Shown here: in pieces, positions 11,263 through 40,016 of the stretch | How positions within the stretch are numbered: position 1 is the stretch's first letter | Layout of the letters: the number at the start of each line of letters is the position of its first letter | Source of the DNA: Bacteroidota bacterium | GTDB lineage: Bacteria > Bacteroidota > Ignavibacteria > SZUA-365 | NCBI GenBank assembly: GCA_049663345.1 | Contig: JBATDG010000087.1 | Span: 33,695 to 97,694, forward strand | Length of the DNA stretch: 64,000 nucleotides | Direction: 5' to 3' | The notes under the pieces: model-generated | What the model saw: only the letters and a program-made list of their open reading frames with translations | Told to the model about the DNA's origin: nothing | The model's database searches: none | Program-made: the position numbers and the translations under genes

Positions 11263-12822
11263 ATGCTTCGCATTCTCCTGCTCCTGCTGATCGCCGCTCC
11301 CTTATATGCTCAGATGCCGGATTATCCGGTAGAGGATGACCGCGGCCGCGGCGTGCCCGACAAACCTGCACCCGAGCTGCAGTTTATCGGCTACATGTTT
11401 AACCGCTTCACAACAACCAACATTGCACCGACGAACGAACTGCTCCGCGGACAGATCATAGGCCGCCTTTTCGGCGCCAATACGACGACGACCCTGCCGC
11501 AGACTTCGGTGTACGGCGAGACGCGATTCGTGCCGCTGTTCGTTTATCGTCCCTCCATCCTTGACGGTTCCGCTGTATTCCGCGGATTGTTCAAAGTGGA
11601 TATGACTTGGGGCGATGCCAGCTATGGTGTTGGAAACAATACAGGCGGCGCGATCAGCGGCGGAACGGTGAATATTCAAACGCTCATGGCAAACATCGAA
11701 CTGCGGCCCGCAAAGGAATGGAACGTGATAGTCGGCTTGCAGCGCATTTTTGACAACGTGCGCGATCCGAATATCAATACGCTGTGGACGAATCAGACCA
11801 GCGGAAACCGCCTGATGTACTGGGGGACCCAAGGCGTCGGTGTGAGCAGTTATTCACAGCTTTCTCCTGTGACCGATCTCCGACTGGCCTATTATCAGCT
11901 CTACGAAAATCAGATTCAGTACGACGATGACGTTGTGCTCTGGATGGCGGATGCTGAAACGCAGGTTGATCCTCTTCTGGAAGTCGGTGCGAGCGCATGG
12001 TACGTCCGTGATCGCGGCGCCGGCAACGGCGGCGTCTCGGTATTGGGACAGGGTTTTAATTCATCGCTGGTTAATTACAATGGCGGAGCAAGGCTTCAGC
12101 TCGACAATCCCAGGTACACTGCCGATGTGTTCTGGCTGGGCACAAATACTTCGTGGAACCGGGAGTTCATCAACGGACGCTGGTGGGCGAGCGCCATGGC
12201 GATGGCGAATCTGGGCAGCATCGACACCGTCGCCCTCAATGGCAGTACTGGACACCGTGCGGATATTTTCGGTGTCACCGGCCACGGCTCGCTCTACTAC
12301 AAATTCGGCCAGACCCTGAATGATCGCGTCGGCGTGGAAGGACTCTACACGACAGGCGACAAGGATGGAGCTGCTGACGGAACATATTCCGGCGTCGTTA
12401 CGGGTAATACCTGGGGTTCACCGGTAGGCATCTACAGTTCACATCGCGCCTTTCTGCTTTTCCCGGATGCGCAGGTCATCAATCGCTATTACTCTGCTGT
12501 TCACGATATTTCGAACCTCGGCTACGGCACGAGCGCGCTGTTCTTCAACTATTTCAACGACCTGATTCCCAACAAACTGGGCATGAAACTCGGAGCAGCG
12601 GCTGCGCTGGCCAACGAAAAACCCGATCTCGGCGGTAATTTCATGGGCTACGAAGTGAACGCCGAATTCAAGTACAACTACGGGGTCTTCCTGAACTTCG
12701 GGCTGCACATGGCATACATGGTACCCGGCGATTTCTACGATAGTCCGTTTGTTCGCAACACCGAGCAAAAACCCGCCGATCCATGGGTGCTTTTCCTAAG
12801 CATCGCCTGGCTGATGTTCTGA
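11263..12822 (+). CDS. Putative outer-membrane beta-barrel protein (porin-like)
   Basis: Signal peptide MLRILLLLLIAAPLYAQ after a GAGGTGG ribosome-binding site. The sequence has an alternating amphipathic pattern and a C-terminal aromatic ...WLMF. The ORF start was trimmed from 11152. Confidence 0.5.
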   Translation: MLRILLLLLIAAPLYAQMPDYPVEDDRGRGVPDKPAPELQFIGYMFNRFTTTNIAPTNELLRGQIIGRLFGANTTTTLPQTSVYGETRFVPLFVYRPSILDGSAVFRGLFKVDMTWGDASYGVGNNTGGAISGGTVNIQTLMANIELRPAKEWNVIVGLQRIFDNVRDPNINTLWTNQTSGNRLMYWGTQGVGVSSYSQLSPVTDLRLAYYQLYENQIQYDDDVVLWMADAETQVDPLLEVGASAWYVRDRGAGNGGVSVLGQGFNSSLVNYNGGARLQLDNPRYTADVFWLGTNTSWNREFINGRWWASAMAMANLGSIDTVALNGSTGHRADIFGVTGHGSLYYKFGQTLNDRVGVEGLYTTGDKDGAADGTYSGVVTGNTWGSPVGIYSSHRAFLLFPDAQVINRYYSAVHDISNLGYGTSALFFNYFNDLIPNKLGMKLGAAAALANEKPDLGGNFMGYEVNAEFKYNYGVFLNFGLHMAYMVPGDFYDSPFVRNTEQKPADPWVLFLSIAWLMF

Positions 12823-12860
12823 TAATCGCCTTTGGAACTCCATCATCAATGGCACGCGCT

Positions 12861-13820
12861 ATGAAAATTTCCCTGTTCCCCATATTTCTCATCATCCTCA
12901 TGATTACTGGCTGCAGTTCCGCAAAATTCTATTACGATGCACCGCCTCTTGCCTTCGAGGACATCGACTATGGATTCCCCATGACGACGGGAACCATCAA
13001 TGGTGTGCAGATGGCCTGGTATGACAGCGGCGGCAGCGGCGCCGTCGTTGTGCTTGTGCACGGACTCGCGAGCAATGCCGGCTTCTGGCGCTACAATGTT
13101 TCCGCCTTGGTTTCCGCCGGTTTCCGTGTGATCGCCGTCGACCTTCCCGGTTACGGGAAGTCTGCAAAAGCTTACGCTACGCCCTATGGAATGGCCTTCT
13201 ACGCAAAAACGCTCGATGCCCTGCTGCAAAAGCTCTCGATTGAAAAGGCCACAATTGCCGGACATTCGATGGGCGGACAGATCGCCATGACCATGGTCCT
13301 GCAGGGGAGTGCGCGCGCAGAGCGGCTGTTACTGCTGTCGCCAGCGGGGATCGAGCGCTTCAAGGACGGCGAAGGCCGCTGGCTGAAGGACGCCGTGTCT
13401 CCCGCTTTCGTCATCAATACTCCCGAAGACCGCATACGCGCGAATCTCGCATCGAATTTCTATTGCTGGCGCGATGACCTGGAATGGATGGTGGAGGAAC
13501 GCGTGCGAATGGCGAAGGACCCCGCGTTCGAGCGGTTCGCCTACGTCGTCTCGCGCTGCGTCGCCGCTATGGTCGAGGAACCGGTTTGGCAAAGTCTGGA
13601 CAAGCTCAACGTGCCTATTCTCGTGCTCGCCGGTGAAAAGGATAATCTGATCCCTAATCCATATCTGCATGGAGGGACTACGCAGGGAGTGATGGAGAAT
13701 GGCGTCGCGCAGCTGCCTTCGGCACGGCTGCAGATGATTCCCAGTGCAGGACACATGATTCAGATCGAGAAACCCGAGCTGATCAACGAGGCTATGATTG
13801 CTTTTCTCAAGGGATCGTAA
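12861..13820 (+). CDS. Alpha/beta-hydrolase fold lipoprotein
   Basis: Lipoprotein signal MKISLFPIFLIILMITGCSS. Motifs VLVHGLASNAGFW and GHSMGG (nucleophile elbow). Confidence 0.75.
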   Translation: MKISLFPIFLIILMITGCSSAKFYYDAPPLAFEDIDYGFPMTTGTINGVQMAWYDSGGSGAVVVLVHGLASNAGFWRYNVSALVSAGFRVIAVDLPGYGKSAKAYATPYGMAFYAKTLDALLQKLSIEKATIAGHSMGGQIAMTMVLQGSARAERLLLLSPAGIERFKDGEGRWLKDAVSPAFVINTPEDRIRANLASNFYCWRDDLEWMVEERVRMAKDPAFERFAYVVSRCVAAMVEEPVWQSLDKLNVPILVLAGEKDNLIPNPYLHGGTTQGVMENGVAQLPSARLQMIPSAGHMIQIEKPELINEAMIAFLKGS

Positions 13821-25573: not shown

Positions 25574-26989
25574 TTGGGAAACCTGTCCGACGCAGGTGAC
25601 ATCCTGATCGTTGACGATGAGGAAATGATGGGCATCGTGCTGTCCGGCGTATTCGAGGATGCCGGGTTTTCAGTGCGAACCGCCACTAATGGCGAGGCGG
25701 CAATCAAGCTTATCGGTGAACGTTTGCCCGATGCGATGCTGCTTGACATCATCATGCCGGGACTGAGCGGCATGGAAGTGCTCAAACGGATCAAATCCGT
25801 TGATGAGAGCATCCCTGTCATTCTTATGACTGCTATGGCTGGCGTCAGCGGGGCTGTTGAAGCGATGCGCGCCGGTGCCTACGATTACATCGCCAAACCA
25901 TTCCACAATGAGGAACTCCTGCGCATCGTATCCGCCGCCGTTCGGCAGCGTCTCTCGCGCAGCGATTTTATTGCCACCCGGGACGGAGATAACGAACAGC
26001 GTGACCCCATACTCTTTAATATGGGCACCAGTGAGGTTATCATGGAATTGTCCGCGCGCACGCGCCGCGTGGCGAAAAGCAATTTCGATGTTCTTATCAC
26101 AGGGGAAACCGGGACCGGGAAAGAACTCATCGCGCGTTCGATACACGAGATGAGCAGCAGGGGCAATAAGCCCTTCATCGCTATCGACACGGGTGCGATA
26201 CCGGAAGCCCTTCTCGAAAGTGATCTGTTTGGTCATGAGGAGGGCGCGTTTACTGATGCGCGGAATCAGAAGAAGGGGAAGTTTGAACTAGCGCAAGGCG
26301 GCACGATTTTCCTCGATGAAGTCCCCAACATGTCCTGGCAATCTCAGGCCAAACTGCTGCGTGCTCTGCAGGATCGGGCGATTTCCCGTGTCGGTGGAAG
26401 CAAGTCTATTAGCATCGATGTCCGCGTTATCGCGGCGAGCAATTCTGATTTTCAGGATATGATTGATGAAAAGCGATTTCGCGCCGATCTGTTTTACCGC
26501 CTGCGCGAATTCTCTATCCACGTTCCTGCACTGCGCGAGCGCAAAGCCGACATCCCGTTCCTTGTTGACAAATTCGTGCGCATGACAAATCAGGAATTGG
26601 GGAAGAATATCGGGGGCTGCAGCGCCTCAGCGATGGACGCCTTGATGATGTATGATTGGCCCGGAAATGTACGGCAGCTTCGTTCGACAGTTCGCAGCGC
26701 AGTGCTTCAGGCAACCCACATCATTGAGATCGAGCAGCTCGAATTCATGGAGATGTCTGCTGTTGACGGACAAGTACGCTCCGGCGGCGAACTCCCCGAA
26801 CTCGAGAACGGCATGCCGCTGAAGGAGCATGTGAAAAAACATATCGCTCAGATCGAACGGCAAATAATCTATGAAACACTGAAGTCAACCAAGTGGAATA
26901 AGGCAAAGACGGCGCGCGTGCTGCAGATTGCCTACAATACGCTGTTGACGAAGATCGGCGAATACGATCTTCAGAATCCTCACGGTTGA
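25574..26989 (+). CDS. Sigma-54-interaction-domain response regulator (NtrC/Fis family: REC-AAA+-HTH). The sigma-54 contact loop reads GAFTDA
   Basis: REC domain with DIIMPG, Walker A GETGTGKE, ESDLFGHEEGAFTDA and a C-terminal Fis-type HTH. Confidence 0.85.
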   Translation: MGNLSDAGDILIVDDEEMMGIVLSGVFEDAGFSVRTATNGEAAIKLIGERLPDAMLLDIIMPGLSGMEVLKRIKSVDESIPVILMTAMAGVSGAVEAMRAGAYDYIAKPFHNEELLRIVSAAVRQRLSRSDFIATRDGDNEQRDPILFNMGTSEVIMELSARTRRVAKSNFDVLITGETGTGKELIARSIHEMSSRGNKPFIAIDTGAIPEALLESDLFGHEEGAFTDARNQKKGKFELAQGGTIFLDEVPNMSWQSQAKLLRALQDRAISRVGGSKSISIDVRVIAASNSDFQDMIDEKRFRADLFYRLREFSIHVPALRERKADIPFLVDKFVRMTNQELGKNIGGCSASAMDALMMYDWPGNVRQLRSTVRSAVLQATHIIEIEQLEFMEMSAVDGQVRSGGELPELENGMPLKEHVKKHIAQIERQIIYETLKSTKWNKAKTARVLQIAYNTLLTKIGEYDLQNPHG

Positions 26990-27047: not shown

Positions 27048-30000
27048 ATGATGACTTCGGACGCCCCGCTACATATTTTTCTGATCGAGGATGATCCCGA
27101 ACAGGTTGCGTTTCTGAAAGTGACCTTGCGTACGGAGCAGAATTCAGCGTATTCGTTGACCCATGCCGCGAGTCTGGGTGAGGCCAAAGTACTGCTGGCC
27201 GAATTGAAGCCGGATGTGATTCTTCTTGATCTGCATCTTCCCGACAGTGAGGGGCTTAACACTCCGCGCGAAATTCTCGCCCTCGCTCCGCAAATCCCAA
27301 TCATTATCTATAGCGGCAACACCGATGTAGAGCTCGCGATCGAGGCAGTGCGGCTCGGAGCGCAGGACTACCTCCTCAAGGGCGAGGCGCGCGAACCTCT
27401 GCTGTCCCGCGCCATGCGATATGCGATTGAGCGGAAACACACCGCTCTCGAACTCGAGCAGGCGCACACAATTCTCGAAGAACGCAATGCAGCTTTGGAG
27501 ATTGCGCGCAGCGAACTCCGGTCGGAACGAGACATGTTCGTTTCCGGACCGACAATCCTGTTCAGACGCGATTTCACGACGGGCTTCCCGATCACCTTCG
27601 TTTCGCGCAATGTCTCACAATTCGGTTTTCTGCAGCGCGATCTCATGGTGGAAGGATTCCGATATGATTCGCTGGTATTCAGCGATGATCGCGAGGGGTT
27701 TCGCAATCTGCTCACCGTGCGCCTTAGCGAGGGTATCGAGAATGTCGAACAGGAATACCGGATTCTTGACGCGAGAGGCGAAATCGTCTGGCTTCACGAA
27801 GTGGCGCGGATACAGCGCGGCGCAGACGGAGAGCCCATCGCTCAGCTCGCCTATGTTGTCGACATAACCCGGCGGCGTCAGGCTGAAAAAAGCCTTTCTT
27901 CCACACGAAGGCGCTTCGATACTATCCTCGGCAGTATCAATGAGATTGTCTACGAAATCGATATTCACGGCCGGCTTCTGTATATCAGTCCCGCCATCGA
28001 ACGCATTCTCGGCTGGGAAGCAGATGGATTAATCGGTCAGCCATTTGCGGAACTAGTCGTTGAGGAGCAGCGCGAGGGCTGGGAAGAAAGCTTCGCACGT
28101 ATCGTCAGCGGAACGGTCCTTGCCTGCGAATTCCCATTGAACGCGGCCGACGGTCACGAACATGTGTTCCAGATCTCCGCACGCCGGCAAACCGATGGGA
28201 CTCAGGTCCGCTCTATTGCCGGGGTGCTCACCGATATAACCGACCGCAGGGAAATGGAACATGCCATCCGGAATGTTCGCACTCAGACGCAGCAATATCT
28301 TGACATCGCCGAGGTGGTGTTCCTTTCGCTTGATCTGAGCGGGAGCATCACGCTCATCAATAAAAAGGGTTGTCAGGTTCTGGGCTATAATGAACATGAG
28401 CTCGTGGGGCGGGACTGGTTTGACCTCTGTATTCCTGAGCATATACGGGAGGAGACTCGTGCATTTTTCTTCCGCATCGTCGGTGGGGGTGAGACCCAAA
28501 CAGATGTACACGAAAATGACGTGCGTACCAAATCGGGTGAAGAGCGGCTCCTTCGCTGGCACAATTCGTTGATGCACGATAGCCGCGGCGCTGTGATCGG
28601 GATGCTGAGCAGCGGTGAGGATATTACTGATCGGCGCAGAATCGAACTCGAGGCCAAAGGGTCGCAGGAACTGATCGACCTTGCACTTTGGGGGGCGGAT
28701 CTCGGTGCGTGGGAATGGGATATTCACAACGATAGCATCACACTGAATTCTCGTGCCCTGTCGATGTTGGGCTACGAAGCAGGGCAGCTCCCATTGTTCA
28801 CTCAGCTGCGGGAAGAAACTCTTCCGATAGAAGATGTGAGCCGATTGCAGGAAATGATGAATGCTCATCTCGAAGGGCGTTCACCCTTCTATCAGGCTGA
28901 GACCTGGATAATTTGCCGGAGTGGTGAATGGAAGTGGGTCCTCGAACGCGGGAAAGTCGTGGAATATGATACTGCGGGAGCGCCTCTGAGGGTTGCAGGC
29001 ACCTACCTTGATCTGACCGTGAGAAAATATGCTGAGATCGCACTTGAGGATAGTGAAAAGAAATTCCGTCTTCTTGCGGAAAACTCATCCGATATCATCT
29101 GGACGGTAAATGCCGATTTCGAGCTGACCTTCGTCAGCCCGTCAATCGAATTCGTACTTGGCTTTACGCCTGAAGAAATGATGGATACGGACTTCTTTGA
29201 CGCCATCGATGAAGACTTTTTGAGGGATAAAAAAGAGCAATTTATCACAGCCCTACGGAACTCTGCCGCCCGCCCTCCGCACGATCGTACGCTTCGCATA
29301 GAAGCCCCGTTCGTGAAAAAAGATGGAAGCATCCTTTGGGTCGAGGTCGTTGCAACTCCGATCCTCGACCATGGCGGAAATCTCGTGAGCGTTCACGGCA
29401 ATTCCCGCGACATTCATTATCGCAGAATCGCACAGCAGGGACTTGCCGACAGCGAAGGGAAGTACCGTCTGCTTGTGCAGAACCAGACAGATCTTGTCAT
29501 CAAGATGGATCTTGACGGAAAGTTCCTCTTCGTAAGCCCTTCGTACTGCAGGATGTTTGGCAAGACGGAAAACGAACTCCTGCTGCAGCCGTTTTTCCCG
29601 ATGGTGCATGAGGATGACCGTGCGGCCGCACTCGACGCTATGAAGAAATTGTTCGAGGCGCCTTTCACCAGCTATGTCGAACAGCGTGCCCTGACCCAGG
29701 ATGGCTGGCGATGGCTCGGCTGGCAGGACACTGCTGTCCTGAACGACAATGATGAAGTGGTTGCGATCATTGGAGTAGGGCGCGACGTGACCGAGCGCCG
29801 TATGGCAGAACGAGCGCTTATTGATAGCGAGAAGCGCCTCCGTACAGTAATCTCCAACCTTCCAGTCATCATGTTCACGCTGAATAAGGATGGGAAATTC
29901 ACCATGTCGGAGGGTATGGGACTCGAATCCCTCGGACTGACATCAGGGCAGGTCGTGGGTCTTTCGGCATTTGATGTTTATGCTAATAATCCCGACGTAG

Positions 30001-32021
30001 TCGCGGGTCTCCGCCGTGCCATCGGAGGTGAGGCTTTTGTCGCCGCGGTGGAAGTCGAAGGGAAGTCGTTCGAGACATGGTATTCGCCGGTGTTCGGCGA
30101 CGGCGGGGAGGTCGAACACGTCATTGGTGTCGCTGTCGACATCACAAGCCGGAAGAAGACTGAACAGGAGCTCGCCCAGTACCGCGATCATCTTGAAGAA
30201 TTGGTCGAGGCGCGGACACTGGAACTCGAGCGTGCTAATGAGCGGCTGAAGCGATTCCGCTTTGCACTTGACAGCGCGGCCGACAACATCTACATCATCG
30301 ATCCGGAAACGATGAAGTATGTGGATCTCAACGAAAGCGCCGTCGAGGCTCTTGGATATGAACGTGAAGAATTGCTGACCATGGGTCCGTACGACGTGCA
30401 GGTGCATTCCGAAAAACAGGAGCATATGGAAACCTATGCTAAGGTGCGCGGGGGCACTCTCGAGGTCGGGATTTTTGAGACAGAGCATATGAAGAAAGAC
30501 GGCAGCCGCTTCCCTGTCGAGGTGTTTGTCCGCGCCTTCGAATCCGGTGATGCCCGGCTCCTCATCGCAACTGCTCGCGATGTCTCTCGCCGCCGCGCCG
30601 CTGAGCTGGCGCTGAAGGAATCCGAGGCGAAGTATCGCAACGTGTTGGAAAACGCGAATGAAGCCATCATCGTGCTTCAGGATAATCTGCTGCGTTTCTA
30701 CAATTACAAAGTCCTAGAGCTGACAGGTCTCTCTGATGCCGCTCTCAAGGATCTCCCCATCTTCGAATTTGTGCATCCTGATGATCACGCGCTACTTCGC
30801 CGCCAATATCAGGAGAGAGTCCGCGGCGGACTTCTGCCCGAGAGCTACGACGTAAGGATGTACGACAGCAACGGCACGATCAAGTGGATGGAAGTGCGCG
30901 ATGTGCTCATCACGTGGGACGGCAAGCCCGCGACACTGAATTTCTTCAACGACATCACAGCCAGGAAATATGCGGAGGATTACATCCGCTTCCAGGCTTC
31001 ACTGCTGAGCATCGTTCGCAACTCGGTTGTGGCACTTGACCAATCGGGCCGCGTTACCTATTGGAATTCCTTCGCGGAGACACTTTTCGGGTGGACCGCA
31101 CAGGAAGTCCAGGGCAGGAAGCTGAATGAATTCCCTACCTTCGGTCCCGAGTTCGAAACCGAGCTGCTTCCCTCAGTGAGAGCTCGCGGTCATTGGGAAG
31201 GCGAAGGCGAACTGCAGCGCAGCGATGGCACAATGCTCTCCGTGTATTCGATGTGGACCGTCATTATTCAGGACGATCAGCTGCGCGGCTACGTGGGAAT
31301 CGGTATGGATCTGTCGGAGAGGAAAAAGCTCGAGAAGGAATTGCTGCAATCCCAGAAGCTCGCCTCGCTCGGCATTCTATCCGAAGGCATTGCGCATGAA
31401 TTGAGGAATCCGCTAGGTTATGCCAGTTCCGCCGCCCAGCTCCTGATATCAAAAAAGGATCTGACCGAGGAGCAGCGGAAGAAATACAGCACAGTGATCC
31501 ACACAGGCGTTGACCGGGCGAATAAAATCGTCGAAAACCTGCTTCTCATCGGCAAGCCCAAGGGGCAGCTGATGAAAAAATCGCTCAATCTGATTGACAC
31601 TGTTCGTGAAGCGCTTTCCCTGATCTCCTCGCATCACAACGCCGCTGGCGTTCACATCGAGAAGCAATTCGAAGCAAAGGAACTCCTCGTGCTGGGAAAC
31701 AGGGAGATTCTCATACAACTCTTTTACAACCTGTTCACCAACGCTCTCGATGCCATGGCTGGCAGCGGAACGCTGCGGATTTGCGGTGAGCAGAAGAAAG
31801 GGCATGTCTATATCCGCGTCAGCGATACTGGTCCCGGTGTTCCCGAGCATATCGTAGAAAACATTTTCGATCCCTTCTTTACGACCTCCAAAACCGACAA
31901 AGGCGTCGGGCTTGGCCTCACGCTCTGCTATTTCATCATGGACGACCATGAAGGCCGTATCGAGCTGGATACCACAGCAGAAACAGGTGCAGCGTTCATT
32001 TTAATCTTCCCGGCCGTGTGA
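27048..32021 (+). CDS. Giant hybrid sensor histidine kinase (1657 aa): N-terminal receiver, at least 8 PAS/PAC repeats, HisKA and HATPase_c
   Basis: REC (LLDLHLPD), repeated PAS-like blocks, H-box LASLGILSEGIAHELRNPL, and N/G boxes near the C-terminus. Confidence 0.85.
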   Translation: MMTSDAPLHIFLIEDDPEQVAFLKVTLRTEQNSAYSLTHAASLGEAKVLLAELKPDVILLDLHLPDSEGLNTPREILALAPQIPIIIYSGNTDVELAIEAVRLGAQDYLLKGEAREPLLSRAMRYAIERKHTALELEQAHTILEERNAALEIARSELRSERDMFVSGPTILFRRDFTTGFPITFVSRNVSQFGFLQRDLMVEGFRYDSLVFSDDREGFRNLLTVRLSEGIENVEQEYRILDARGEIVWLHEVARIQRGADGEPIAQLAYVVDITRRRQAEKSLSSTRRRFDTILGSINEIVYEIDIHGRLLYISPAIERILGWEADGLIGQPFAELVVEEQREGWEESFARIVSGTVLACEFPLNAADGHEHVFQISARRQTDGTQVRSIAGVLTDITDRREMEHAIRNVRTQTQQYLDIAEVVFLSLDLSGSITLINKKGCQVLGYNEHELVGRDWFDLCIPEHIREETRAFFFRIVGGGETQTDVHENDVRTKSGEERLLRWHNSLMHDSRGAVIGMLSSGEDITDRRRIELEAKGSQELIDLALWGADLGAWEWDIHNDSITLNSRALSMLGYEAGQLPLFTQLREETLPIEDVSRLQEMMNAHLEGRSPFYQAETWIICRSGEWKWVLERGKVVEYDTAGAPLRVAGTYLDLTVRKYAEIALEDSEKKFRLLAENSSDIIWTVNADFELTFVSPSIEFVLGFTPEEMMDTDFFDAIDEDFLRDKKEQFITALRNSAARPPHDRTLRIEAPFVKKDGSILWVEVVATPILDHGGNLVSVHGNSRDIHYRRIAQQGLADSEGKYRLLVQNQTDLVIKMDLDGKFLFVSPSYCRMFGKTENELLLQPFFPMVHEDDRAAALDAMKKLFEAPFTSYVEQRALTQDGWRWLGWQDTAVLNDNDEVVAIIGVGRDVTERRMAERALIDSEKRLRTVISNLPVIMFTLNKDGKFTMSEGMGLESLGLTSGQVVGLSAFDVYANNPDVVAGLRRAIGGEAFVAAVEVEGKSFETWYSPVFGDGGEVEHVIGVAVDITSRKKTEQELAQYRDHLEELVEARTLELERANERLKRFRFALDSAADNIYIIDPETMKYVDLNESAVEALGYEREELLTMGPYDVQVHSEKQEHMETYAKVRGGTLEVGIFETEHMKKDGSRFPVEVFVRAFESGDARLLIATARDVSRRRAAELALKESEAKYRNVLENANEAIIVLQDNLLRFYNYKVLELTGLSDAALKDLPIFEFVHPDDHALLRRQYQERVRGGLLPESYDVRMYDSNGTIKWMEVRDVLITWDGKPATLNFFNDITARKYAEDYIRFQASLLSIVRNSVVALDQSGRVTYWNSFAETLFGWTAQEVQGRKLNEFPTFGPEFETELLPSVRARGHWEGEGELQRSDGTMLSVYSMWTVIIQDDQLRGYVGIGMDLSERKKLEKELLQSQKLASLGILSEGIAHELRNPLGYASSAAQLLISKKDLTEEQRKKYSTVIHTGVDRANKIVENLLLIGKPKGQLMKKSLNLIDTVREALSLISSHHNAAGVHIEKQFEAKELLVLGNREILIQLFYNLFTNALDAMAGSGTLRICGEQKKGHVYIRVSDTGPGVPEHIVENIFDPFFTTSKTDKGVGLGLTLCYFIMDDHEGRIELDTTAETGAAFILIFPAV

Positions 32022-32113: not shown

Positions 32114-32175
32114 CCGTATGCATCGGTAGCAGAGAGACGACCGGGCTAGTCCGAAAGCACTATTCAATTCATTCC

Positions 32176-32195
32176 CTATGCAGATCCCTGCATAG
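32176..32195. promoter_or_regulatory. Perfect 8-bp inverted repeat CTATGCAG-ATCC-CTGCATAG inside a motif (CAATTCATTCCCTATGCAG) shared with the paralogous site at 34788..34835. It is a candidate operator
   Basis: Read directly. The paralogous intergenic region carries an expanded 16-bp palindrome built on the same TGCAG core. Confidence 0.5.
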
Positions 32196-32403
32196 TTTTT
32201 CAGTGCGCTGCATACTGCGAAGATTAACATTTTGTAAGATTCGTGCAGCATCATCATATGGATAACTGCTCCGATTTCCTTTCAGTTTTCAACCGTTGCT
32301 TTAGTGTTCGGCTCCTATCCTGTTGATTGACAACAGATCCGCATCACGGCAAGCAGGTCTAAATCCCCTATTTCAGGGGCAATTCCCCCCACATTGTGAA
32401 TTA

Positions 32404-32419
32404 TGGCACGATTTGTGAA
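32404..32419 (+). promoter_or_regulatory. Sigma-54-like -24/-12 promoter candidate (TGGCACGATTTGTGAA). The -24 box is perfect and the -12 box is degenerate
   Basis: TGGCACG sits about 55 nt upstream of the start codon at 32476. The paralogous position at 35014 has a full consensus. Confidence 0.4.
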
Positions 32420-32475
32420 CAAATAAGGGAGAATCGAAGACTAAGCTCATGATGTTTTATGAGGAAAGTGCTGTG

Positions 32476-34263
32476 ATGAAAAATCAGATACCGATTGGTA
32501 AAACAATTATCCTTGCAATTACACTATGCATGTTCGGATTCGGGACGCAGGCGAGTGCAGCAACACGGACTTGGTCCGCTTTTGCGGCTACCACTTCATG
32601 GGGGACTGCCTCAAATTGGGTTGAGAATGCAGTCCCAGCTTCTGGTGATGACGTTGTTTTCCTTAATTCCGCTACTGTGGTACTCGAGAGTGCGACTCAA
32701 ATCGGTACATTGACACTTTCCGCTGGTGCGGACGTCGGCTTCACCGCGAACGGCCTGCTAACCATCACAGGAACGCTTACCTTGGGTGCGGGATCAGAGA
32801 TCAATCTTGGGAATGGAACAGCCTCCTACCCGCTGCAATTAAATGGAAATATCCTTTTTGCTGATGGCAACAGTGCATCGGATCCTACTAGAATCTACTC
32901 TTCAGTCATCCCTTGGAAGCTTATCAAAATCAGCAGTGCTTCTCACATCTCCATGGGAGGAATTGCGAACGCTTACTTTGGTGATCATACGACGACGTTG
33001 ATCCAGCTAAATGCACAGCCATTCACTTCGGATGTTCGATTTGAGGGTAATCTTCAATTCACTACGACAAACAACATTCTGCTTGGGGCGAATAACTTAT
33101 ATCTGGGCAAGTCTTGCGAACTCACAGTTACTGCGGTATTCCCTAGTGGTGATGGATTTATTGCGACTGACGGTACCGCAGCAACTCCGCAAGGGACTGT
33201 GCGCCGTCAGTTTGATGCTGTAGCCGATTCATTTTATTTCCCTGTTGGCCCTGTCGGTGGACGAATGTCGCCGATCCGCATCAAAATTATTCCACCATCA
33301 ACTAGTGCTATCTTTACATCCGCTTCACCCTGGCCGTATATCTCTGTCCGCTGTTTGTTAAATTCGAGCGGATCGACAGGCGGACATCCGATGAATTTTG
33401 ATAATTCAAGAATCTGGGTGTATTGGCCTGTGAAGGGCGTCGGGATTTCGGAGCCTGCTTATCTTTCAGGCCGAATGTACCTCCATACGAATTATCGTAG
33501 CGGAGATCCTAAAATCTATTCTGCTCGTTGGACTCCGAACTACGAAGACCTCGGTTCGCTTGGAATATGGGATTTGACTGGCTCCTTACCCGGAACGACA
33601 ACAGGGAATACTCGGGAGGTGCCCTTTTCTGGATGCCCGGGTTTCGGAGACTTTAATATTGGAACAGGAATTGCCGGCGATCCTCTTCCCGTCGAACTCA
33701 CTTCCTTCAGCGCCCGCTACATTGATCGTTCGGTGCGGTTGAACTGGAACACAGCGACGGAGCTGAATAACTACGGCTTCTCGATCGAGCGTTCGCAGGA
33801 CAATGAGACATGGGAAGAAGTCGGCTTTGTGGAAGGCTACGGCACTTCGCTTAGTCCTAAGAGCTACACTCATACGGACATGCTGACGGATGACCTCGCG
33901 AAGGTTCCGCAGCTGGCCTATCGTCTGCGTCAGATCGATCGTGACGGCACCACGGATTACTCGAATATCGTGTTTGTGAAGACGGGCACATTGCCCGCGG
34001 GCGTAGAAATGTACGCTGCATATCCGAATCCCTTCAACCCCTCCACGACGCTGAGCTTTACGATTCAGGACCCTGCGACTGTGAATCTGAAGGTGTACAA
34101 TACCTTCGGTCAGGAAGTCGCAACCCTGCTGAGCAGCAGTGCGATGGATGCGGGCCTGCACACGGTCTCCTTTAATGGAGAGCAGCTCCCGAGCGGCGTG
34201 TACATGGCAGTGCTGGAGGCGAACGGTACGCTGCAGCAGCAAAAGTTTGTGCTCAACAAGTGA
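32476..34263 (+). CDS. Adhesin-like secreted protein: signal peptide, beta-helix-like N-terminal repeats, conserved pre-CTD module and a T9SS C-terminal sorting domain
   Basis: Signal peptide MKNQIPIGKTIILAITLCMFGFGTQASA. N-terminal TRTWSAFAATTSWGTASNWVENAVPASGDDVVF (autotransporter-passenger-like repeat). LNWNTATELNNYGFSIERS module. C-terminal YPNPFNPSTTLSFTI...GVYMAVL tail. Confidence 0.75.
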   Translation: MKNQIPIGKTIILAITLCMFGFGTQASAATRTWSAFAATTSWGTASNWVENAVPASGDDVVFLNSATVVLESATQIGTLTLSAGADVGFTANGLLTITGTLTLGAGSEINLGNGTASYPLQLNGNILFADGNSASDPTRIYSSVIPWKLIKISSASHISMGGIANAYFGDHTTTLIQLNAQPFTSDVRFEGNLQFTTTNNILLGANNLYLGKSCELTVTAVFPSGDGFIATDGTAATPQGTVRRQFDAVADSFYFPVGPVGGRMSPIRIKIIPPSTSAIFTSASPWPYISVRCLLNSSGSTGGHPMNFDNSRIWVYWPVKGVGISEPAYLSGRMYLHTNYRSGDPKIYSARWTPNYEDLGSLGIWDLTGSLPGTTTGNTREVPFSGCPGFGDFNIGTGIAGDPLPVELTSFSARYIDRSVRLNWNTATELNNYGFSIERSQDNETWEEVGFVEGYGTSLSPKSYTHTDMLTDDLAKVPQLAYRLRQIDRDGTTDYSNIVFVKTGTLPAGVEMYAAYPNPFNPSTTLSFTIQDPATVNLKVYNTFGQEVATLLSSSAMDAGLHTVSFNGEQLPSGVYMAVLEANGTLQQQKFVLNK

Positions 34264-34376: not shown

Positions 34377-34691
34377 ATGCAAATGGGAATCGATCAGCGG
34401 AGCAGAGTTATAATGGAGATACCGTTTTCGTTTTCGCAGTATGCGTATCCGTTGAACCCAAGTGCGACCGTGAGCTTTACCCTGGAAGAACAACAGGAAG
34501 TCTCCTTGAGGATTTATAACACGTTCGGACAGGTAGTGCACACGCTCTACGAAAACGTTCAGATGAAAGCCGGATACCATGAATTGAGGCTCTACGGCGA
34601 AACCTTCCCCTCAGGTGGATGCTACGCCAGGCTTCATACAAAAAATGGAGTTCAGCAGCGCACATTGGTGCTGAGCACCGACAACAACTGA
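34377..34691 (+). CDS. CTD-only minigene: a free-standing T9SS C-terminal sorting domain (104 aa) with no signal peptide and no cargo domain
   Basis: The whole ORF matches the Por-tail (YAYPLNPSATVSFTL...GGCYARL). It is about 80% identical to the second minigene at 37051..37365, and both ORFs are intact. Alternative start M13 (34413). Confidence 0.55.
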   Translation: MQMGIDQRSRVIMEIPFSFSQYAYPLNPSATVSFTLEEQQEVSLRIYNTFGQVVHTLYENVQMKAGYHELRLYGETFPSGGCYARLHTKNGVQQRTLVLSTDNN

Positions 34692-34766: not shown

Positions 34767-34801
34767 TTGTTACAGGGTGGAGGTATGCAATTCATTCCCT
34801 A

Positions 34802-34835
34802 TGCAGTGGATTGCATATCTATGCAATCCACTGCA
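34802..34835. promoter_or_regulatory. Perfect 16-bp inverted repeat TGCAGTGGATTGCATA-TC-TATGCAATCCACTGCA, preceded by the shared CAATTCATTCCCTATGCAG motif. It is a candidate operator
   Basis: Read directly. Confidence 0.5.
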
Positions 34836-35013
34836 TGCTATTTTCATTAAGATCACATATAAATAATCACGGGTGCGATTTAGGAAAAAGATGCTATATC
34901 TTAAATTACCAGTTGGAGGAAGCTGGCTATCTCGTTGTTTAGCTTTATCTAGCCGCTCATCTCATGAGGGCGTCAATGAGGACAAAGCATATCTTCAATA
35001 GAACGGATACTTT

Positions 35014-35029
35014 TGGCACGTTTTATGCA
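35014..35029 (+). promoter_or_regulatory. Sigma-54 -24/-12 promoter (TGGCACGTTTTATGCA), with the GG and GC dinucleotides at consensus spacing
   Basis: Matches TGGCAC-N5-TTGCA at every position except one. It lies 60 nt upstream of the start at 35090. Confidence 0.6.
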
Positions 35030-35089: not shown

Positions 35090-36891
35090 ATGCAGAAATA
35101 TAGACTGTTTGTGAAAATCGGCCTGCTGGCGGCAATCCTTTTCTATATGGGACTCGGATCTGACGCCTTCGCTGTCACCCGGACCTGGGTAGGTGTCGGA
35201 CTTGGCAATTGGAACACTGCTCTCAACTGGAGGCCTAGCAGCGTCTCGGGTATTACCGGAAACACCGGTGATGCCGTGATTATTAACACCGTCTCGACGA
35301 TTACCATGAATGCTTCTTCAAACATCACGATCGCATCATTGCCCATTTCTGCGTCGAGTGTTGGACTCATTTCGGATAAAAAGATAACCACAGGGTCATT
35401 GACGGTTTCAGGTTCACTTGTTCTCAGCTATGTGAGTGCTGGAGGTGCGGCGAACAATATTTTTGATATCACCGGTGCAATGAGCCTTACTGCTCCGGTA
35501 TTATCTCTCGCTCGGGTTCCTGGGTGAGTACGGATGTCAAGATAAATATCGGCAGGAGAGGTACAGGCACAATAACCATGGCGGCGATTGCGAATAATTA
35601 CATCGCCTACCATGTCAACACTAGTATTGCTCGCAAACCTGTCCTGCTTTCCGATGTGAGATTTGAAGGAGACATTAATCTGCCTTCAGGAATTTCTCTT
35701 GGCACTGATGACCTGTATCTAGGGATCAACGCAGACGTGCTTACTCCGAATGCTGAAATCGGTGACCCAGGGAACTGCATCGAAGTTTCCGGCGGGAATA
35801 CAACTCCCTCCGGTGTTGTACGCAAACAGTATACTGCCGTAAATGACGCGTTCACCTTTAATGTGAGTCCCGGTACCGGCCGGTTGTCGCCCATCACGAT
35901 CAAGGTCATCAGCCCGACGCCATCCTCCTCATTTACAAGTGCTGTTCCCTGGCCGCATATCTTTGTCCGCGTCGTTCTCAATAATGGTGGAAACGGCGGA
36001 CACCCCGCGAATCAGCAGTCGCAAAAAGTCGGGGTTCACTGGCCGGTTAAAGGCTACGGAATCAACACTCCGGTATATTTCTCCGGTGTAATGACTTCCC
36101 ATAACAACTACAGGAACGGATCAGCTAACGATCTGTATTCAGCCCGCTACGCTCCAAGCTACGAAGATAACCTTTTTAATAGCGGTTGGGACCTCACCGG
36201 AACACAGCAAGTCACGACTACGAGCGGTGACCTTCGAAGCGTCCCGTTTAACGGCTTCCCCGGCTTTGGTGATTTCACCATCGGTTTTGGAGATCCCTTT
36301 GGCGGCGACCCTGTACCCGTCGAGCTCACTTCCTTCAGCGCACGCTATATCGATGGTTCGGTTCGCTTGAACTGGAATACCGCGACCGAGCTTAATAACT
36401 TCGGCTTCGCCATCGAGCGTTCGCAGGATTCGAAGAACTGGGAAGAAGTCGGCTTCGTGCAGGGCTACGGAACTTCCAGCAGCCCGAAGAGCTATTCGCA
36501 TACCGATGTGCTTACGGACGACCTTGCACGCACTCCGCAGCTCGCTTACCGTCTGCGTCAGATGGATCGCGACGGCACAATTGATTACTCGAACATCGTT
36601 TTTGTCAAAACGGGCGAACTGCCCGCCGGCGTCGAACTTTACGCTGCCTATCCGAATCCCTTCAACCCCGCAACTACGATCAGCTTTACTGTCAAGGAGT
36701 CTGCGAACGTAAACCTGAAGGTGTACAACACCTTCGGTCAGGTAGTCGCGACCCTGCTCAGCAACAGCTCAATGGATGCCGGCCTGCACACGATGTCGTT
36801 CAACGGAAATGACCTTCCGAGCGGCGTGTACATGGCAGTGCTTGAGGCGAGCGGTGAACTGCAGCAGCAGAAGCTTGTGCTCAACAAGTGA
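35090..36891 (+). pseudogene. Paralogue of cargo gene 32476..34263. It is split by a frameshift near 35520 into ORFs 35090..35527 (signal peptide plus N-terminus) and 35524..36891 (beta-helix, pre-CTD module, T9SS CTD)
   Basis: The two ORFs jointly align along the full length of the 604-aa paralogue (145+455 aa). The frame changes from phase 2 to phase 1. This could be a genuine pseudogene, a sequencing error or programmed slippage. Confidence 0.55.
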
Positions 36892-37050: not shown

Positions 37051-37365
37051 ATGGAGCTGGGAATGGAATCGCGGAACAGAGAAAAGATGGATATTCCGTT
37101 TACATTTTCGCAGTATGCGTATCCGTTGAACCCGAGCGCAACTCTGAGTTTCACCCTTGACGAAGCACAGGAAGTGTCGCTGAAAATTTACAACATGTTC
37201 GGACAGGTGGTGCGTACGCTCTACGAAAGGGTTCAGATGAAAGCCGGGTACCATGAATTGAGGCTCTATGGAGAGACCTTTCCGGCCGGAGGTTGTTACG
37301 CGCGGCTCCACACAACAAAGGGAGTTCAGCAGCGCACGTTGATGCTGAGCACCGAGAATTCCTGA
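37051..37365 (+). CDS. CTD-only minigene 2 (104 aa, free-standing T9SS C-terminal sorting domain)
   Basis: AGGAAAG ribosome-binding site 7 nt upstream of the ATG. The sequence FSQYAYPLNPSATLSFTL...GGCYARL is about 80% identical to 34377..34691. Confidence 0.55.
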   Translation: MELGMESRNREKMDIPFTFSQYAYPLNPSATLSFTLDEAQEVSLKIYNMFGQVVRTLYERVQMKAGYHELRLYGETFPAGGCYARLHTTKGVQQRTLMLSTENS

Positions 37366-37412: not shown

Positions 37413-37456
37413 AAAAAAAGTCCGCCGTACGCAGTTTGCCGTAGGCGGACTTTTTT
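37413..37456. terminator. Bidirectional rho-independent terminator
   Basis: A7-GTCCGCC...GGCGGAC-T6. Confidence 0.7.
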
Positions 37457-37529
37457 CTTACGGTTGCTGATGTGAATTCGGAGTTCCCTATATTATGTAC
37501 GGAGTACCTAACGGAAGCAGCGCCGCAAC

Positions 37530-38912
37530 ATGCCGGAAAAAGAGAAAATTGATGTCCTGATTGTCGATGATGAGGAGCAGATCTGTTTCGTGCTCACTCA
37601 TCTGCTTAAAGTGCATGGCTATGGCTCACGCATAGCGCCCCGCGGAGACCGTGCACTGCGGATGATTGAGGATCAGCGCCCGGATCTCATTATCATGGAT
37701 ATTCGGATGCCGGGAATGAGCGGCTTTGATGTGCTCGAACGTATCCGGGAGTTTGATACAGATGTTCCTGTAATCCTGATGACAGCCCTGCCGGGGGTGC
37801 GTGATGCAGTCCACGCAATGAAGGCGACGGCTTTCGACTACATTGCAAAACCATTCGACAATAACCACATGGTCGGAACAGTTGAACGCGCACTTAGTGT
37901 TGCAGCAGACCTGCGCCGGAATGAAAAATATACAGACCGGTCGCCGGAGCCGCTTCACCCGCTGTTCGCGGCTATGGGCAGCAGCCTGGCCGTACGAAGA
38001 CTTGCGCGTGAAAGCGGACGAATCGCGAATTCTGCTAATCCGGTAATGATCATTGGAGAAATCGGAACAGGCAAGCGCCACCTCGGAAAAATTCTTCATA
38101 CACTCAGTGAACGCCAGGGATCCTTTCTCAACATCGATTGCACAGGCGCTAGCGAATTGATCCTGCGGCAGGAACTGTTCGGTTCCGCTATCGGAACCGG
38201 GCACCGAGGGAAGCTTGAACTGGCGGATCAGGGCACGCTTCTTCTTGATGAGGTTTCAGAGATTCCGTGGACGTTCCAGGAAATCCTCTCCGAAGCCCTG
38301 CATCAAAAGGAATTCTCCGCACCAGCCAGCGAAGAGATGATCCCGATTGCATGCCGACTTCTTTTCGCTTCGAGTATTGCACCGGATAGAGGTATCGATG
38401 GCAACTTCCTGACGCCTCGTTTCCGTGAGCTTTTCGGAGAAGCGATCATCGAAGTGCCGCCGCTCCGGGAACGGCATGAGGACATCCCCATCCTCGCTCT
38501 GGAATTTCTCCAGGATGCGAACAGGGAGCTGGGGCGAAATATGGTAGTGATCTCGGATGCCGCACTCGAAAAGTTGGTTTCCTATCATTGGCCTGGAAAT
38601 GTGCATCAGCTTAAATCCACGATTCGGCGAGCCACTCTGACCTCCAAGGATACTATCGGGATCGATGACATCGATCTCCCGATTTCTCACCACGATGCAA
38701 CGATGGATGACGGTATTGCTGCAAGCGTCGCTGTCGCCGGCGCTCCGCTGAAGGAACAAGTGAAGCGGCATATTGCCGAGGTCGAAAGGCAGCTCGTCTT
38801 TGAAACACTGCGGCAAACTGGCTGGAATAAAGCCCAGGCCTCAAGACTTCTGGGAGTTACGTATAAAACATTATTGAAAAAAGTCAGCGATTATGGCCTC
38901 GAACGACAATAA
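37530..38912 (+). CDS. Sigma-54-interaction-domain response regulator homologue (REC-AAA+-HTH) whose GAFTGA loop is deleted or degenerate
   Basis: REC (DLIIMDIRMPG), Walker A GEIGTGKR and a Fis-type HTH. The segment equivalent to ESELFGHEKGAFTGA reads QELFGSAIGTGHRG. Confidence 0.8.
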   Translation: MPEKEKIDVLIVDDEEQICFVLTHLLKVHGYGSRIAPRGDRALRMIEDQRPDLIIMDIRMPGMSGFDVLERIREFDTDVPVILMTALPGVRDAVHAMKATAFDYIAKPFDNNHMVGTVERALSVAADLRRNEKYTDRSPEPLHPLFAAMGSSLAVRRLARESGRIANSANPVMIIGEIGTGKRHLGKILHTLSERQGSFLNIDCTGASELILRQELFGSAIGTGHRGKLELADQGTLLLDEVSEIPWTFQEILSEALHQKEFSAPASEEMIPIACRLLFASSIAPDRGIDGNFLTPRFRELFGEAIIEVPPLRERHEDIPILALEFLQDANRELGRNMVVISDAALEKLVSYHWPGNVHQLKSTIRRATLTSKDTIGIDDIDLPISHHDATMDDGIAASVAVAGAPLKEQVKRHIAEVERQLVFETLRQTGWNKAQASRLLGVTYKTLLKKVSDYGLERQ

Positions 38913-38948: not shown

Positions 38949-40016
38949 GTGAAAAAGAAAATTCCACAAATTCCCGTGCAGCTCGAACAGCTGCTTCAAA
39001 TCCTTCCTGACGCCGCGTACATTCTCGATGGCGCGGGAATTATTCTCTATGCAAATCCAGCCGTCCACAGGCATACCGGATGGGAATCAGCCCAGCTGGT
39101 CGGTCAGTGCGTCGCTGATTCGCTGCTTTTTGCGCTCCCGTTTCGTTCGTCACTCATGGGCAGCCTCCTCGAGCAAGGAGTGTGGGAGGGTGAATCCGAG
39201 CGGATCCGCCCCGATGGCAGTCTCAACACAGTCCAGGCGCTTTGGCAGGGTCTCCCGGATCCGGATGGGGCCGCAAGATTCATCGGCATAGATCGGGACA
39301 TCTCGGAACTCCGCACACAGGAGCTTGAACTACAGCAGTGCCGCAAACTCGCAAAGATCGGCATCCTCTCTGAAGGTATCGCACACGAATTGCGGAATCC
39401 GCTGAGCTACGCGCTTTCCGCCGCACAGCTTCTCAACGAAGATACGCTGCCGGAGGAAGTGCGCCAGAAATGTGTTCAAACCATCACAATGGGTGTAAAA
39501 AAAGCTGGACTGATTGTCGAAAACATGCTTTCGCTCGGTAGGCCACAAACACAGATTACACGGCAGCGAGTCAACATCGTGCTCGTTCTCGCAGAGGCTA
39601 TTGAAGCGGCCTCATCGCATGCGAACTATTCCGCTGTCCGTATTTTTCAGCGTCTTCCCGGCGAAACATTATTCGTCTCTGGTAATCACGATATGCTTGT
39701 TCAGGTTTTTCATAACGTCATCACCAATGCCCTGAATGAAATGCCGAACGGCGGCAGCATTACGGTGAGCGGGGAAAATAGCACTGATAGTATTCGGATA
39801 TCTGTGTCTGATACGGGCCCCGGCATACCTGAGGAGCATATCGACAAGCTCTTCGATCCGTTTTATTCAGCGTCTTCGTCCGGTACAGGCACCGGTCTGG
39901 GACTGACGCTCAGCTACTTTATCATGAAAGAGCATGCGGGAAGTATCGAAGTGGAAGCGCACCCGGGTTCGGGTGCAACATTTGTACTGACTTTCCCCGG
40001 GTTCAACGAATCGTAA
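38949..40016 (+). CDS. Cytoplasmic PAS sensor histidine kinase
   Basis: A PAS-like N-terminus, H-box LAKIGILSEGIAHELRNPL and HATPase_c motifs (DTGPGIPEEHIDKLFDPFY..GTGLGL). Confidence 0.85.
   Translation: MKKKIPQIPVQLEQLLQILPDAAYILDGAGIILYANPAVHRHTGWESAQLVGQCVADSLLFALPFRSSLMGSLLEQGVWEGESERIRPDGSLNTVQALWQGLPDPDGAARFIGIDRDISELRTQELELQQCRKLAKIGILSEGIAHELRNPLSYALSAAQLLNEDTLPEEVRQKCVQTITMGVKKAGLIVENMLSLGRPQTQITRQRVNIVLVLAEAIEAASSHANYSAVRIFQRLPGETLFVSGNHDMLVQVFHNVITNALNEMPNGGSITVSGENSTDSIRISVSDTGPGIPEEHIDKLFDPFYSASSSGTGTGLGLTLSYFIMKEHAGSIEVEAHPGSGATFVLTFPGFNES

Follow-up and report, generated by a model that had tools for sequence, protein, structure and literature searches.

The question raised by this locus is why a well conserved sigma-54 promoter should lie beside the gene of a regulator that appears unable to contact sigma-54, and what such a regulator might then be for. 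The window, by which is meant the whole stretch of 64,000 nucleotides analysed here, comes from contig JBATDG010000087.1 of a Bacteroidota bacterium (Ignavibacteria; SZUA-365). The protein in question is RR2, a homologue of the NtrC-type response regulators, the gene of which is followed by that of a histidine kinase (HK2) and preceded by two genes, cargo1 and cargo2, for proteins sorted by the type IX secretion system (T9SS). A second regulator of the same architecture, RR1, and its partner kinase HK1 are encoded further upstream. The answer we favour, with modest confidence and from what can be read in the sequence, is that RR2 is an atypical enhancer-binding protein (EBP), that the cargo promoters are fired by RR1, and that RR2 is a DNA-binding modulator that would bring in a second signal.

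The central domain of RR2

The gene and the parts of its product that bear on the question are:

37530..38912, + strand, RR2, NtrC-type response regulator homologue of 460 residues (an ATG-started open reading frame (ORF); Pfam; a 100%-identical protein at NCBI from a metagenome-assembled genome (MAG))
37554..37883, + strand, receiver domain, residues 9-118, with D13, D14, D57, T85 and K107 (Pfam Response_reg, 102 bits)
38055..38078, + strand, Walker A motif GEIGTGKR, residues 176-183, with G176, G179, G181 and K182 invariant in the family
38172..38210, + strand, remnant of the L1 loop, ELFGSAIGTGHRG, residues 215-227, six residues short and without GAFTGA (alignments, pattern search)
38247..38252, + strand, Walker B D240-E241 (LLLDE), kept in the window protein and replaced in other family members
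38313..38447, + strand, degenerate catalytic half, residues 262-306 (mapping on PspF; 34% domain identity, against 86% in RR1 orthologues)
38595..38612, + strand, sensor II motif GNVHQL, residues 356-361, with His359 at the position of the canonical Arg
38772..38891, + strand, Fis-type helix-turn-helix (HTH), residues 415-454 (Pfam HTH_8)

Pfam profiles give RR2 the architecture of a receiver (REC), a degenerate AAA+ domain, a lid and a Fis-type HTH. The first-pass annotation had described the Walker A motif, the REC domain and the HTH as intact and this is borne out, with G176-EIGTGK-182, all of D13/D14/D57/T85/K107 and HTH_8 being present. The acidic pocket, the phospho-acceptor Asp, the Thr and Lys and the adjoining kinase HK2 are those of a two-component response regulator. 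The match to the Sigma54_activat domain (PF00158) covers residues 150-289 with 85.4 bits (cut-off 20.2), against 223 bits for RR1, and ends at position 149 of the 168 in the profile; the lid is AAA_lid_14, at residues 313-389. An AlphaFold2 model built on the alignment of the RR2 family has a predicted local distance difference test score (pLDDT) of 84; in it the AAA+ fold is preserved and L1 forms a short hairpin. The structures nearest to the model are NtrC1, the atypical NtrX, NtrC4, LuxO and VpsR. The homologous AAA+ fold is thus predicted, in a confident model, to have been retained.

The loop that should contact sigma-54 has not been retained. The L1 segment reads L212-RQELFGSAIGTGHRGKLELA-232, residues 215-232 being ELFGSAIGTGHRGKLELA, and a gap of six residues falls at the position of GAFTGA whether RR2 is aligned with RR1 by BLASTP, with the solved NtrC4 and LuxO chains by HMMER, or with PspF by MAFFT. 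The absence of GAFT noticed on first reading is confirmed by these three alignments and by a pattern search, although the number of residues missing is six and not about five. Nor is the loop simply shifted, since regular expressions run over the whole protein found no GAFTGA-like hexamer and no [FYW][TS]G triplet anywhere. A displaced equivalent of GAFTGA, the result that might have overturned the first reading, was accordingly rejected as a candidate, with the alignments against PspF, NtrC4, LuxO and RR1 all returning the gap and only a distant subclade of the family showing a GSATGP that is without the Phe.

The degeneration goes beyond what had been described at first, with further losses seen when the residues are mapped on a PspF reference that is 100% identical to PDB 2VII. 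The RVGG of L2 (pre-sensor I) has become APAS, T148-N149 of sensor I have become S281-S282, so that its Asn is lost, and L294 and E300 stand where PspF has its arginine fingers R162 and R168, with no conserved Arg in the finger segment in the alignment of the family. The sensor II Arg (R227 of PspF, motif GN[IV]REL) is His359, and the residue after the Walker A Lys, which is Glu in canonical EBPs, is Arg. Compared with the canonical activators of the NtrC1, NtrC4 and AtoC type, RR2 is therefore without GAFTGA, the RVGG of L2, the sensor I Asn, the arginine fingers and the sensor II Arg. The alignments show RR2 to lack the residues that, by homology, contact sigma-54 and those for ATP hydrolysis in trans. 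The proposal that such a protein would be unable to remodel the sigma-54 holoenzyme is strengthened by the lost fingers, sensors I and II and L2 and by a Walker B that varies between relatives, and it appears unlikely that RR2 fires the sigma-54 promoter next to it.

The RR2 family and its conservation

A search of 5.8 billion proteins gave an RR2 family of 37 protein clusters with 45-100% identity and 393-1023 bits, below which the scores fall sharply to 327 bits, where the canonical EBPs start and the RR1 orthologues come first. The members come from Bacteroidota/Ignavibacteria-like MAGs, with some homologues labelled Ignavibacteria; a scan of genome contigs with the family alignment was unspecific, the true members there being L005, L006 and L051 only. 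Judged by these matches RR2 is a diverged relative of the canonical activator RR1, the orthologues of which are its closest database matches outside the family.

GAFTGA is absent from all 37 clusters in the alignment. The distant subclade has GGSATGP at the position of the motif, without the critical Phe, and this looks like a vestige of it. D13, D14, D57, T85 and K107 are invariant across the 37 members, the glycines and lysine of the P-loop are invariant or nearly so, and His359 is found in at least 90% of the members, where the RR1 orthologues keep GNVRQL. The HTH stretch GWNKAxASRLLGVTYKTLLKKV is also invariant or nearly so, its recognition helix TYKTLLKK being invariant. Walker B is not constrained family-wide, with GN, SG, TE, DG or EE in several members.

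The domains have not changed at the same rate. Mean identity to the window protein within the RR2 family is 71% in the REC, 54% in the N-terminal half of the AAA+ domain, 34% in its C-terminal half, 58% in the lid and 72% in the HTH, versus 82, 87, 86, 77 and 88% respectively among the RR1 orthologues. On four matched contigs RR1 is 73-88% and RR2 45-58% identical to the window proteins, and a neighbour-joining tree gives RR2 about twice the branch length of RR1. It appears from these domain identities and branch lengths that the catalytic half of RR2 evolves like a linker, with signal reception and DNA binding under constraint.

The surroundings of the gene are also kept. In the window the order is RR1, HK1, cargo1, a small ORF, cargo2, a small ORF, RR2, HK2, Mrp/ApbC, NifU, NAD kinase, an unassigned ORF, OPT and PqqD, and the block of cargo gene, small ORF, RR2 and HK2 and onwards (Mrp, NifU, NAD kinase) is found in eight loci with the identity of RR2 down to 45%. 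In all loci examined RR2 is paired with HK2 and stands beside a cargo unit. HK2, which is presumed to be the cognate kinase of RR2, is the following:

38949..40016, + strand, HK2, cytoplasmic PAS-HisKA-HATPase kinase, 36 nucleotides downstream of RR2 and 41% identical to the C-terminus of HK1

At that 41% identity HK2 resembles a copy of the last PAS domain and kinase core of HK1 alone.

With so low an AAA+ score (85 bits), a rate about twice that of RR1 and an adjoining cargo2 split by an apparent frameshift, RR2 might be taken for a non-functional relic of a duplication on its way to loss. This is scarcely credible: 37 clusters with 45-100% identity all have an uninterrupted reading frame, no variation is seen at the phospho-acceptor and P-loop residues and hardly any in the HTH, and the kinase and gene order are kept. 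A decaying pseudogene was rejected because family, invariant residues and gene order are all conserved, and this pattern of substitution in the alignment shows a protein under purifying selection.

RR1, the cargo promoters and their enhancer

If RR2 does not open the promoter beside it, another protein should, and the candidate lies in the same window, together with the control regions on which it would act:

25574..26989, + strand, RR1, canonical paralogue, 40% identical to RR2 (Pfam, BLASTP, mapping on PspF)
27048..32021, + strand, HK1, REC plus multi-PAS hybrid histidine kinase of 1657 residues, partner of RR1
32161..32419, + strand, control region of cargo1, with a three-dyad enhancer at 32161..32214 and the promoter-like TGGCACGATTTGTGAA at 32404..32419
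32449..34263, + strand, cargo1, downstream of its own control region
34784..34837, + strand, enhancer (upstream activating sequence) of three dyads phased by 20 bp, starting 214-230 bp upstream of the -24 TGG
35014..35029, + strand, -24/-12 sigma-54 promoter TGGCACGTTTTATGCA, 61 nucleotides before the cargo ATG at 35090
35090..36891, + strand, cargo2, T9SS-sorted secreted protein, in two ORFs (35090..35527 and 35524..36891)
37051..37365, + strand, ORF of 104 residues that looks like a T9SS C-terminal sorting domain standing alone, after cargo2

The L1 loop of RR1 is ELFGHEEGAFTDA, that is GAFTDA, which the first-pass annotation had already read from the sequence and which the alignments bear out, and the protein keeps the DE of Walker B, both arginine fingers and the sensor II Arg. 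GAFTDA is found in 31 of 32 RR1 relatives checked (72-94% identical), the other having GSFTDA, and all of them keep Walker B and the sensor II Arg. As it is carried throughout these relatives, with the one GSFTDA, it is a fixed variant of the lineage and no lesion, and it is also the motif of a functional Desulfovibrio activator, DVU2106 (PMC4641369). The suspicion that it marks a defect in RR1 was rejected on both grounds. RR1 was present in six of six genomes checked, namely that of the window, those of the four matched contigs and GCA_027493955.1. Its kinase HK1, which is 55-83% identical among orthologues, carries a receiver at its N-terminus along with about ten PAS domains.

The near-consensus sigma-54 promoter that had been described at the adjoining cargo gene stands up well, as its position is conserved and an equivalent element precedes the cargo genes in eight other loci. 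All cargo genes examined (13 control regions) have a -24/-12 element, with the consensus TGGCACG-N4-xTGCA, 60-75 nucleotides before the ATG. Upstream of it lies the enhancer, the dyads of which at 34784..34837 are TATGCA-N6-TCCCTA, TATGCA-N6-TGCATA and TATGCA-N6-TGCATG. Across the 13 regions the second dyad starts 210-239 bp upstream of the promoter and the consensus is TATtCAAT.C.TTCCCTATgCA-N5-TTGCATA..T.TGCA-N6-TG.ATA. In three loci where the intergenic DNA has otherwise diverged, promoter and enhancer are the sole conserved islands. The dyad motif occurs seven times in the window where 1.8 are expected, with five of the seven in the two cargo control regions. Counts of the promoter pattern in the window, taken alone, are not above chance, and the case for the cargo promoters therefore rests on their conserved position in related loci. 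The three dyads lie on one face of the helix, as would suit a hexamer built from three dimers.

The proposal is that RR1, once phosphorylated by HK1, would assemble at the three dyads and open the sigma-54 promoters ahead of the cargo genes, which RR2, phosphorylated by HK2, would be unable to do. The presence of a sigma-54 promoter beside a regulator that makes no contact is then explained, because a canonical RR1 is found in every genome checked and the same enhancer at all cargo genes examined.

A clade without RR1, in which RR2 would have to fire the promoter alone, was suspected at one stage as RR1-HK1 are not upstream of the module in the loci L004, L089 and L090. The suspicion was refuted when a search with HK1 found an HK1 orthologue, an RR1 with GAFTDA and two cargo units in the 5.2-Mb genome concerned. 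In this genome (GCA_027493955.1; L004 and L091) the RR1-HK1-cargo module lies about 480 kb from the cargo-RR2-HK2 module, and the same enhancer is present at both cargo units beside RR1. Genes for WD40 and TPR/CHAT proteins precede the RR2 module in the L004 clade, and in the L004/L091 clade each kinase-regulator pair still has at least one cargo unit alongside.

There remains the thought that RR2 activates sigma-54 transcription through an unconventional contact, as has been suggested for the Desulfovibrio protein DVUA0100 (GVATGV). One EBP with a strongly altered motif does still seem to drive sigma-54 promoters (PMC4641369), a conserved sigma-54 promoter adjoins RR2, the three-dimer enhancer is the classic arrangement of an EBP, and the RR2 of the window keeps both Walker A and Walker B. 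We nevertheless regard this as very unlikely, for in RR2 the loop is deleted and not substituted, the fingers, the sensor II Arg and L2 are gone, Walker B is lost in several orthologues, and the canonical paralogue RR1 is there in each genome checked.

Somewhat less improbable, but still a doubtful proposal, is that RR2 and RR1 form mixed rings or dimers, in which RR2, being without fingers and L1, acts as a dominant-negative subunit that poisons or tunes the RR1 hexamer. Arginine fingers work in trans, so that a subunit without them would inactivate its neighbour. The RR1 orthologues are the closest relatives of RR2 outside its family, the two proteins have the same architecture and are 40% identical over their length and 48% in the REC, and the AAA+ fold is retained in the model. 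The AAA+ cores, though, are only 32-39% identical and the ring interface after Walker B is hypervariable in the RR2 family, which argues against a conserved heteromeric interface, and the invariance of the HTH points to DNA binding as the function under selection.

Several other observations concern the cargo genes and their control regions. The first unit of the enhancer (TATTCAAT..TTCCCTA) is asymmetric and yet strongly conserved, at both 32161..32214 and 34784..34837, and may be read by another protein than the two TATGCA-N6-TGCATA units. The closer clade (the window, L005, L085 and L088) also has a conserved box, CTATCtCcTTG (32313..32325 and 34927..34938), about 90-105 bp ahead of the sigma-54 promoters; a second regulator, or a protein that bends DNA, could bind to this box. 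The two ORFs of cargo2 overlap by GTGA and the NCBI record has the same split, with the paralogue cargo1 being a single ORF of 604 residues; the split reflects a genuine frameshift or else a fault in the assembly. ORFs of about 100 residues that resemble a sorting domain and have no signal peptide follow each cargo gene in the window (34377..34691 and 37051..37365), and the cargo genes of all loci examined are likewise each followed by one; Pfam gave no match for the copy tested, that at 34377..34691. Away from the cargo genes, TGGCACGCGCTATGAA at 12850..12865 has one mismatch to the cargo promoter pattern and falls at the start of an alpha/beta-hydrolase ORF (12783..13820), the true start of which may be further downstream.

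RR2 among the atypical enhancer-binding proteins

EBP homologues without GAFTGA are a recognised atypical class that includes TyrR, PhhR, DhaR, HupR, HsfA, NtrX, VpsR and the NtrC proteins of R. capsulatus and Caulobacter (PMC3162934, PMC6158489, bioRxiv 10.1101/2023.06.06.543975). What was said earlier of such variants, namely that they usually repress or else activate with sigma-70, agrees with these papers. With an AAA+ domain homologous to that of EBPs and GAFTGA deleted RR2 has the structure of this class, and by what its sequence has lost it is an atypical EBP, although an orthologue of none of those named. It falls well below the NCBIfam cut-offs for NtrX (NF051870, 230.7 against 600), NtrC (TIGR01818, 253.7 against 558.6) and AtoC (NF008469, 273.7 against 714). 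Its best overall matches are NtrC4 and NtrC1 in the PDB and AtoC in NCBIfam, canonical proteins that share with RR2, as does RR1, the three-domain architecture and a long linker helix between REC and AAA+.

NtrX of the alphaproteobacterial NtrY/NtrX system (Brucella abortus, PDB 5M7N/5M7O/5M7P) is among the best matches of RR2 in both sequence and fold, and likewise has REC, AAA+ and HTH with a shortened L1 and no GAFTGA, leaving a gap of only two residues at the loop of RR2. It is reported to be a repressor at its own promoter (PMC6158489). It belongs to another phylum and is not orthologous to RR2, the nearest relatives of which are RR1 proteins of Bacteroidota type. VpsR of Vibrio cholerae (PDB 7V2B), another fold match without GAFTGA and with a non-consensus Walker B, works with sigma-70 RNA polymerase (PMC6158489), but needs cyclic di-GMP and is independent of phosphorylation, whereas in RR2 the phospho-acceptor pocket is complete and a kinase is encoded next door. 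The NtrC proteins of Rhodobacter capsulatus and Caulobacter crescentus depend on phosphorylation, have L1 deleted as in RR2 and act at sigma-70 promoters, the former requiring the binding of ATP and not its hydrolysis (bioRxiv 10.1101/2023.06.06.543975). These are NtrC orthologues in nitrogen control, unlike RR2, which shares its locus with a canonical paralogue and with T9SS cargo genes driven by sigma-54. TyrR, PhhR, HupR, DhaR and HsfA have a centre of the Sigma54_activat type without a functional GAFTGA and act independently of sigma-54 (PMC3162934, PMC6158489), but differ in their sensory domains (ACT-PAS, GAF and others) or in phosphorylation logic, and RR2 has no close relative among them. 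RR2 is set apart by its phylum, the degree of its catalytic decay, and its fixed place in a sigma-54 T9SS cargo regulon beside a working paralogue.

RR2 might instead have nothing to do with the cargo promoters. The following element bears on this:

37433..37494, + strand, terminator hairpin (37433..37451) with a T tract, then TTCGGAGTT-N3-TATATT at 37477..37494

The sequence TTCGGAGTT-N3-TATATT directly upstream of RR2 occurs only once in the window, is kept in nine loci and is no -24/-12 element; from this conservation it is likely to be a promoter or operator of an RR2-HK2 operon. RR2 could then be an activator or repressor dependent on sigma-A and acting elsewhere, for instance on the RR2-HK2 operon or on the Mrp/ApbC-NifU-NAD kinase block, with R. 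capsulatus NtrC, TyrR, VpsR and Caulobacter NtrC as models. This is a real but lesser possibility. The terminator parts RR2-HK2 from the cargo unit and leaves it with its own conserved non-sigma-54 element, the recognition helix of RR2 is unlike that of RR1, the arrangement with Mrp, NifU and NAD kinase is kept, and sigma-70 promoters are where most characterised atypical EBPs act (PMC6158489). Set against it is that RR2-HK2 stay directly downstream of a cargo and small-ORF unit even where RR1-HK1 are about 480 kb away, and that a dyad scan of the window found no HTH_8-like dyad upstream of the genes downstream of RR2-HK2.

In the reading we prefer, with RR1 as the activator of the cargo promoters and RR2 as a modulator, RR2 would most probably repress or antagonise activation at the cargo enhancers, or act at its own promoter in the manner of NtrX. 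For such a role occupancy of the DNA or oligomerisation in the ATP-bound form would be sufficient, ATP hydrolysis not being required. A more particular version, to be held only tentatively, is that RR2 is a dedicated 'pseudo-activator', a catalytically dead paralogue that sits on the three-dyad enhancer of RR1 or on overlapping units and through which a second kinase gates the transcription of T9SS cargo by sigma-54. If this were true the locus would hold a conserved two-input pair of activator and anti-activator derived from duplicated EBPs; no such pair is described in the EBP literature cited here, though no search was aimed at such pairs.

Some of the evidence weighs against the reading we prefer. 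Walker A and Walker B are both kept in the RR2 of the window and intrinsic turnover of ATP in cis is therefore possible. An exclusive sisterhood of RR1 and RR2 has a bootstrap of 23/100 in what is a simple neighbour-joining tree. The protein that binds the enhancer could be either RR1 or RR2, and as their recognition helices differ (TYKTLLKK in RR2 versus AYNTLL(T/S)K in RR1, that is YKTLLKK versus YNTLL(T/S)K at the core) the two may recognise different sites. Covariation between HTH and enhancer was sought as a means of telling which is the binder and gave no signal, because both recognition helices and the core of the dyads are invariant.

Whichever role is the right one, the automatic label of 'sigma-54 dependent transcriptional regulator' that RR2 carries is almost certainly wrong as a statement of function, and predictions of the regulon should attribute the activation of the cargo promoters to RR1 and not to RR2, which lies beside them. 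The characterised atypical EBPs named in PMC3162934, PMC6158489 and bioRxiv 10.1101/2023.06.06.543975 are all from Proteobacteria or Myxococcus, and to this short list RR2 adds a conserved family from Bacteroidota/Ignavibacteria-like MAGs. With two kinase-regulator pairs, a delimited three-dyad enhancer and sigma-54 promoters before T9SS cargo genes, the locus offers a compact and directly testable regulon, which could reveal how a dead paralogue is put to use beside its active sibling.

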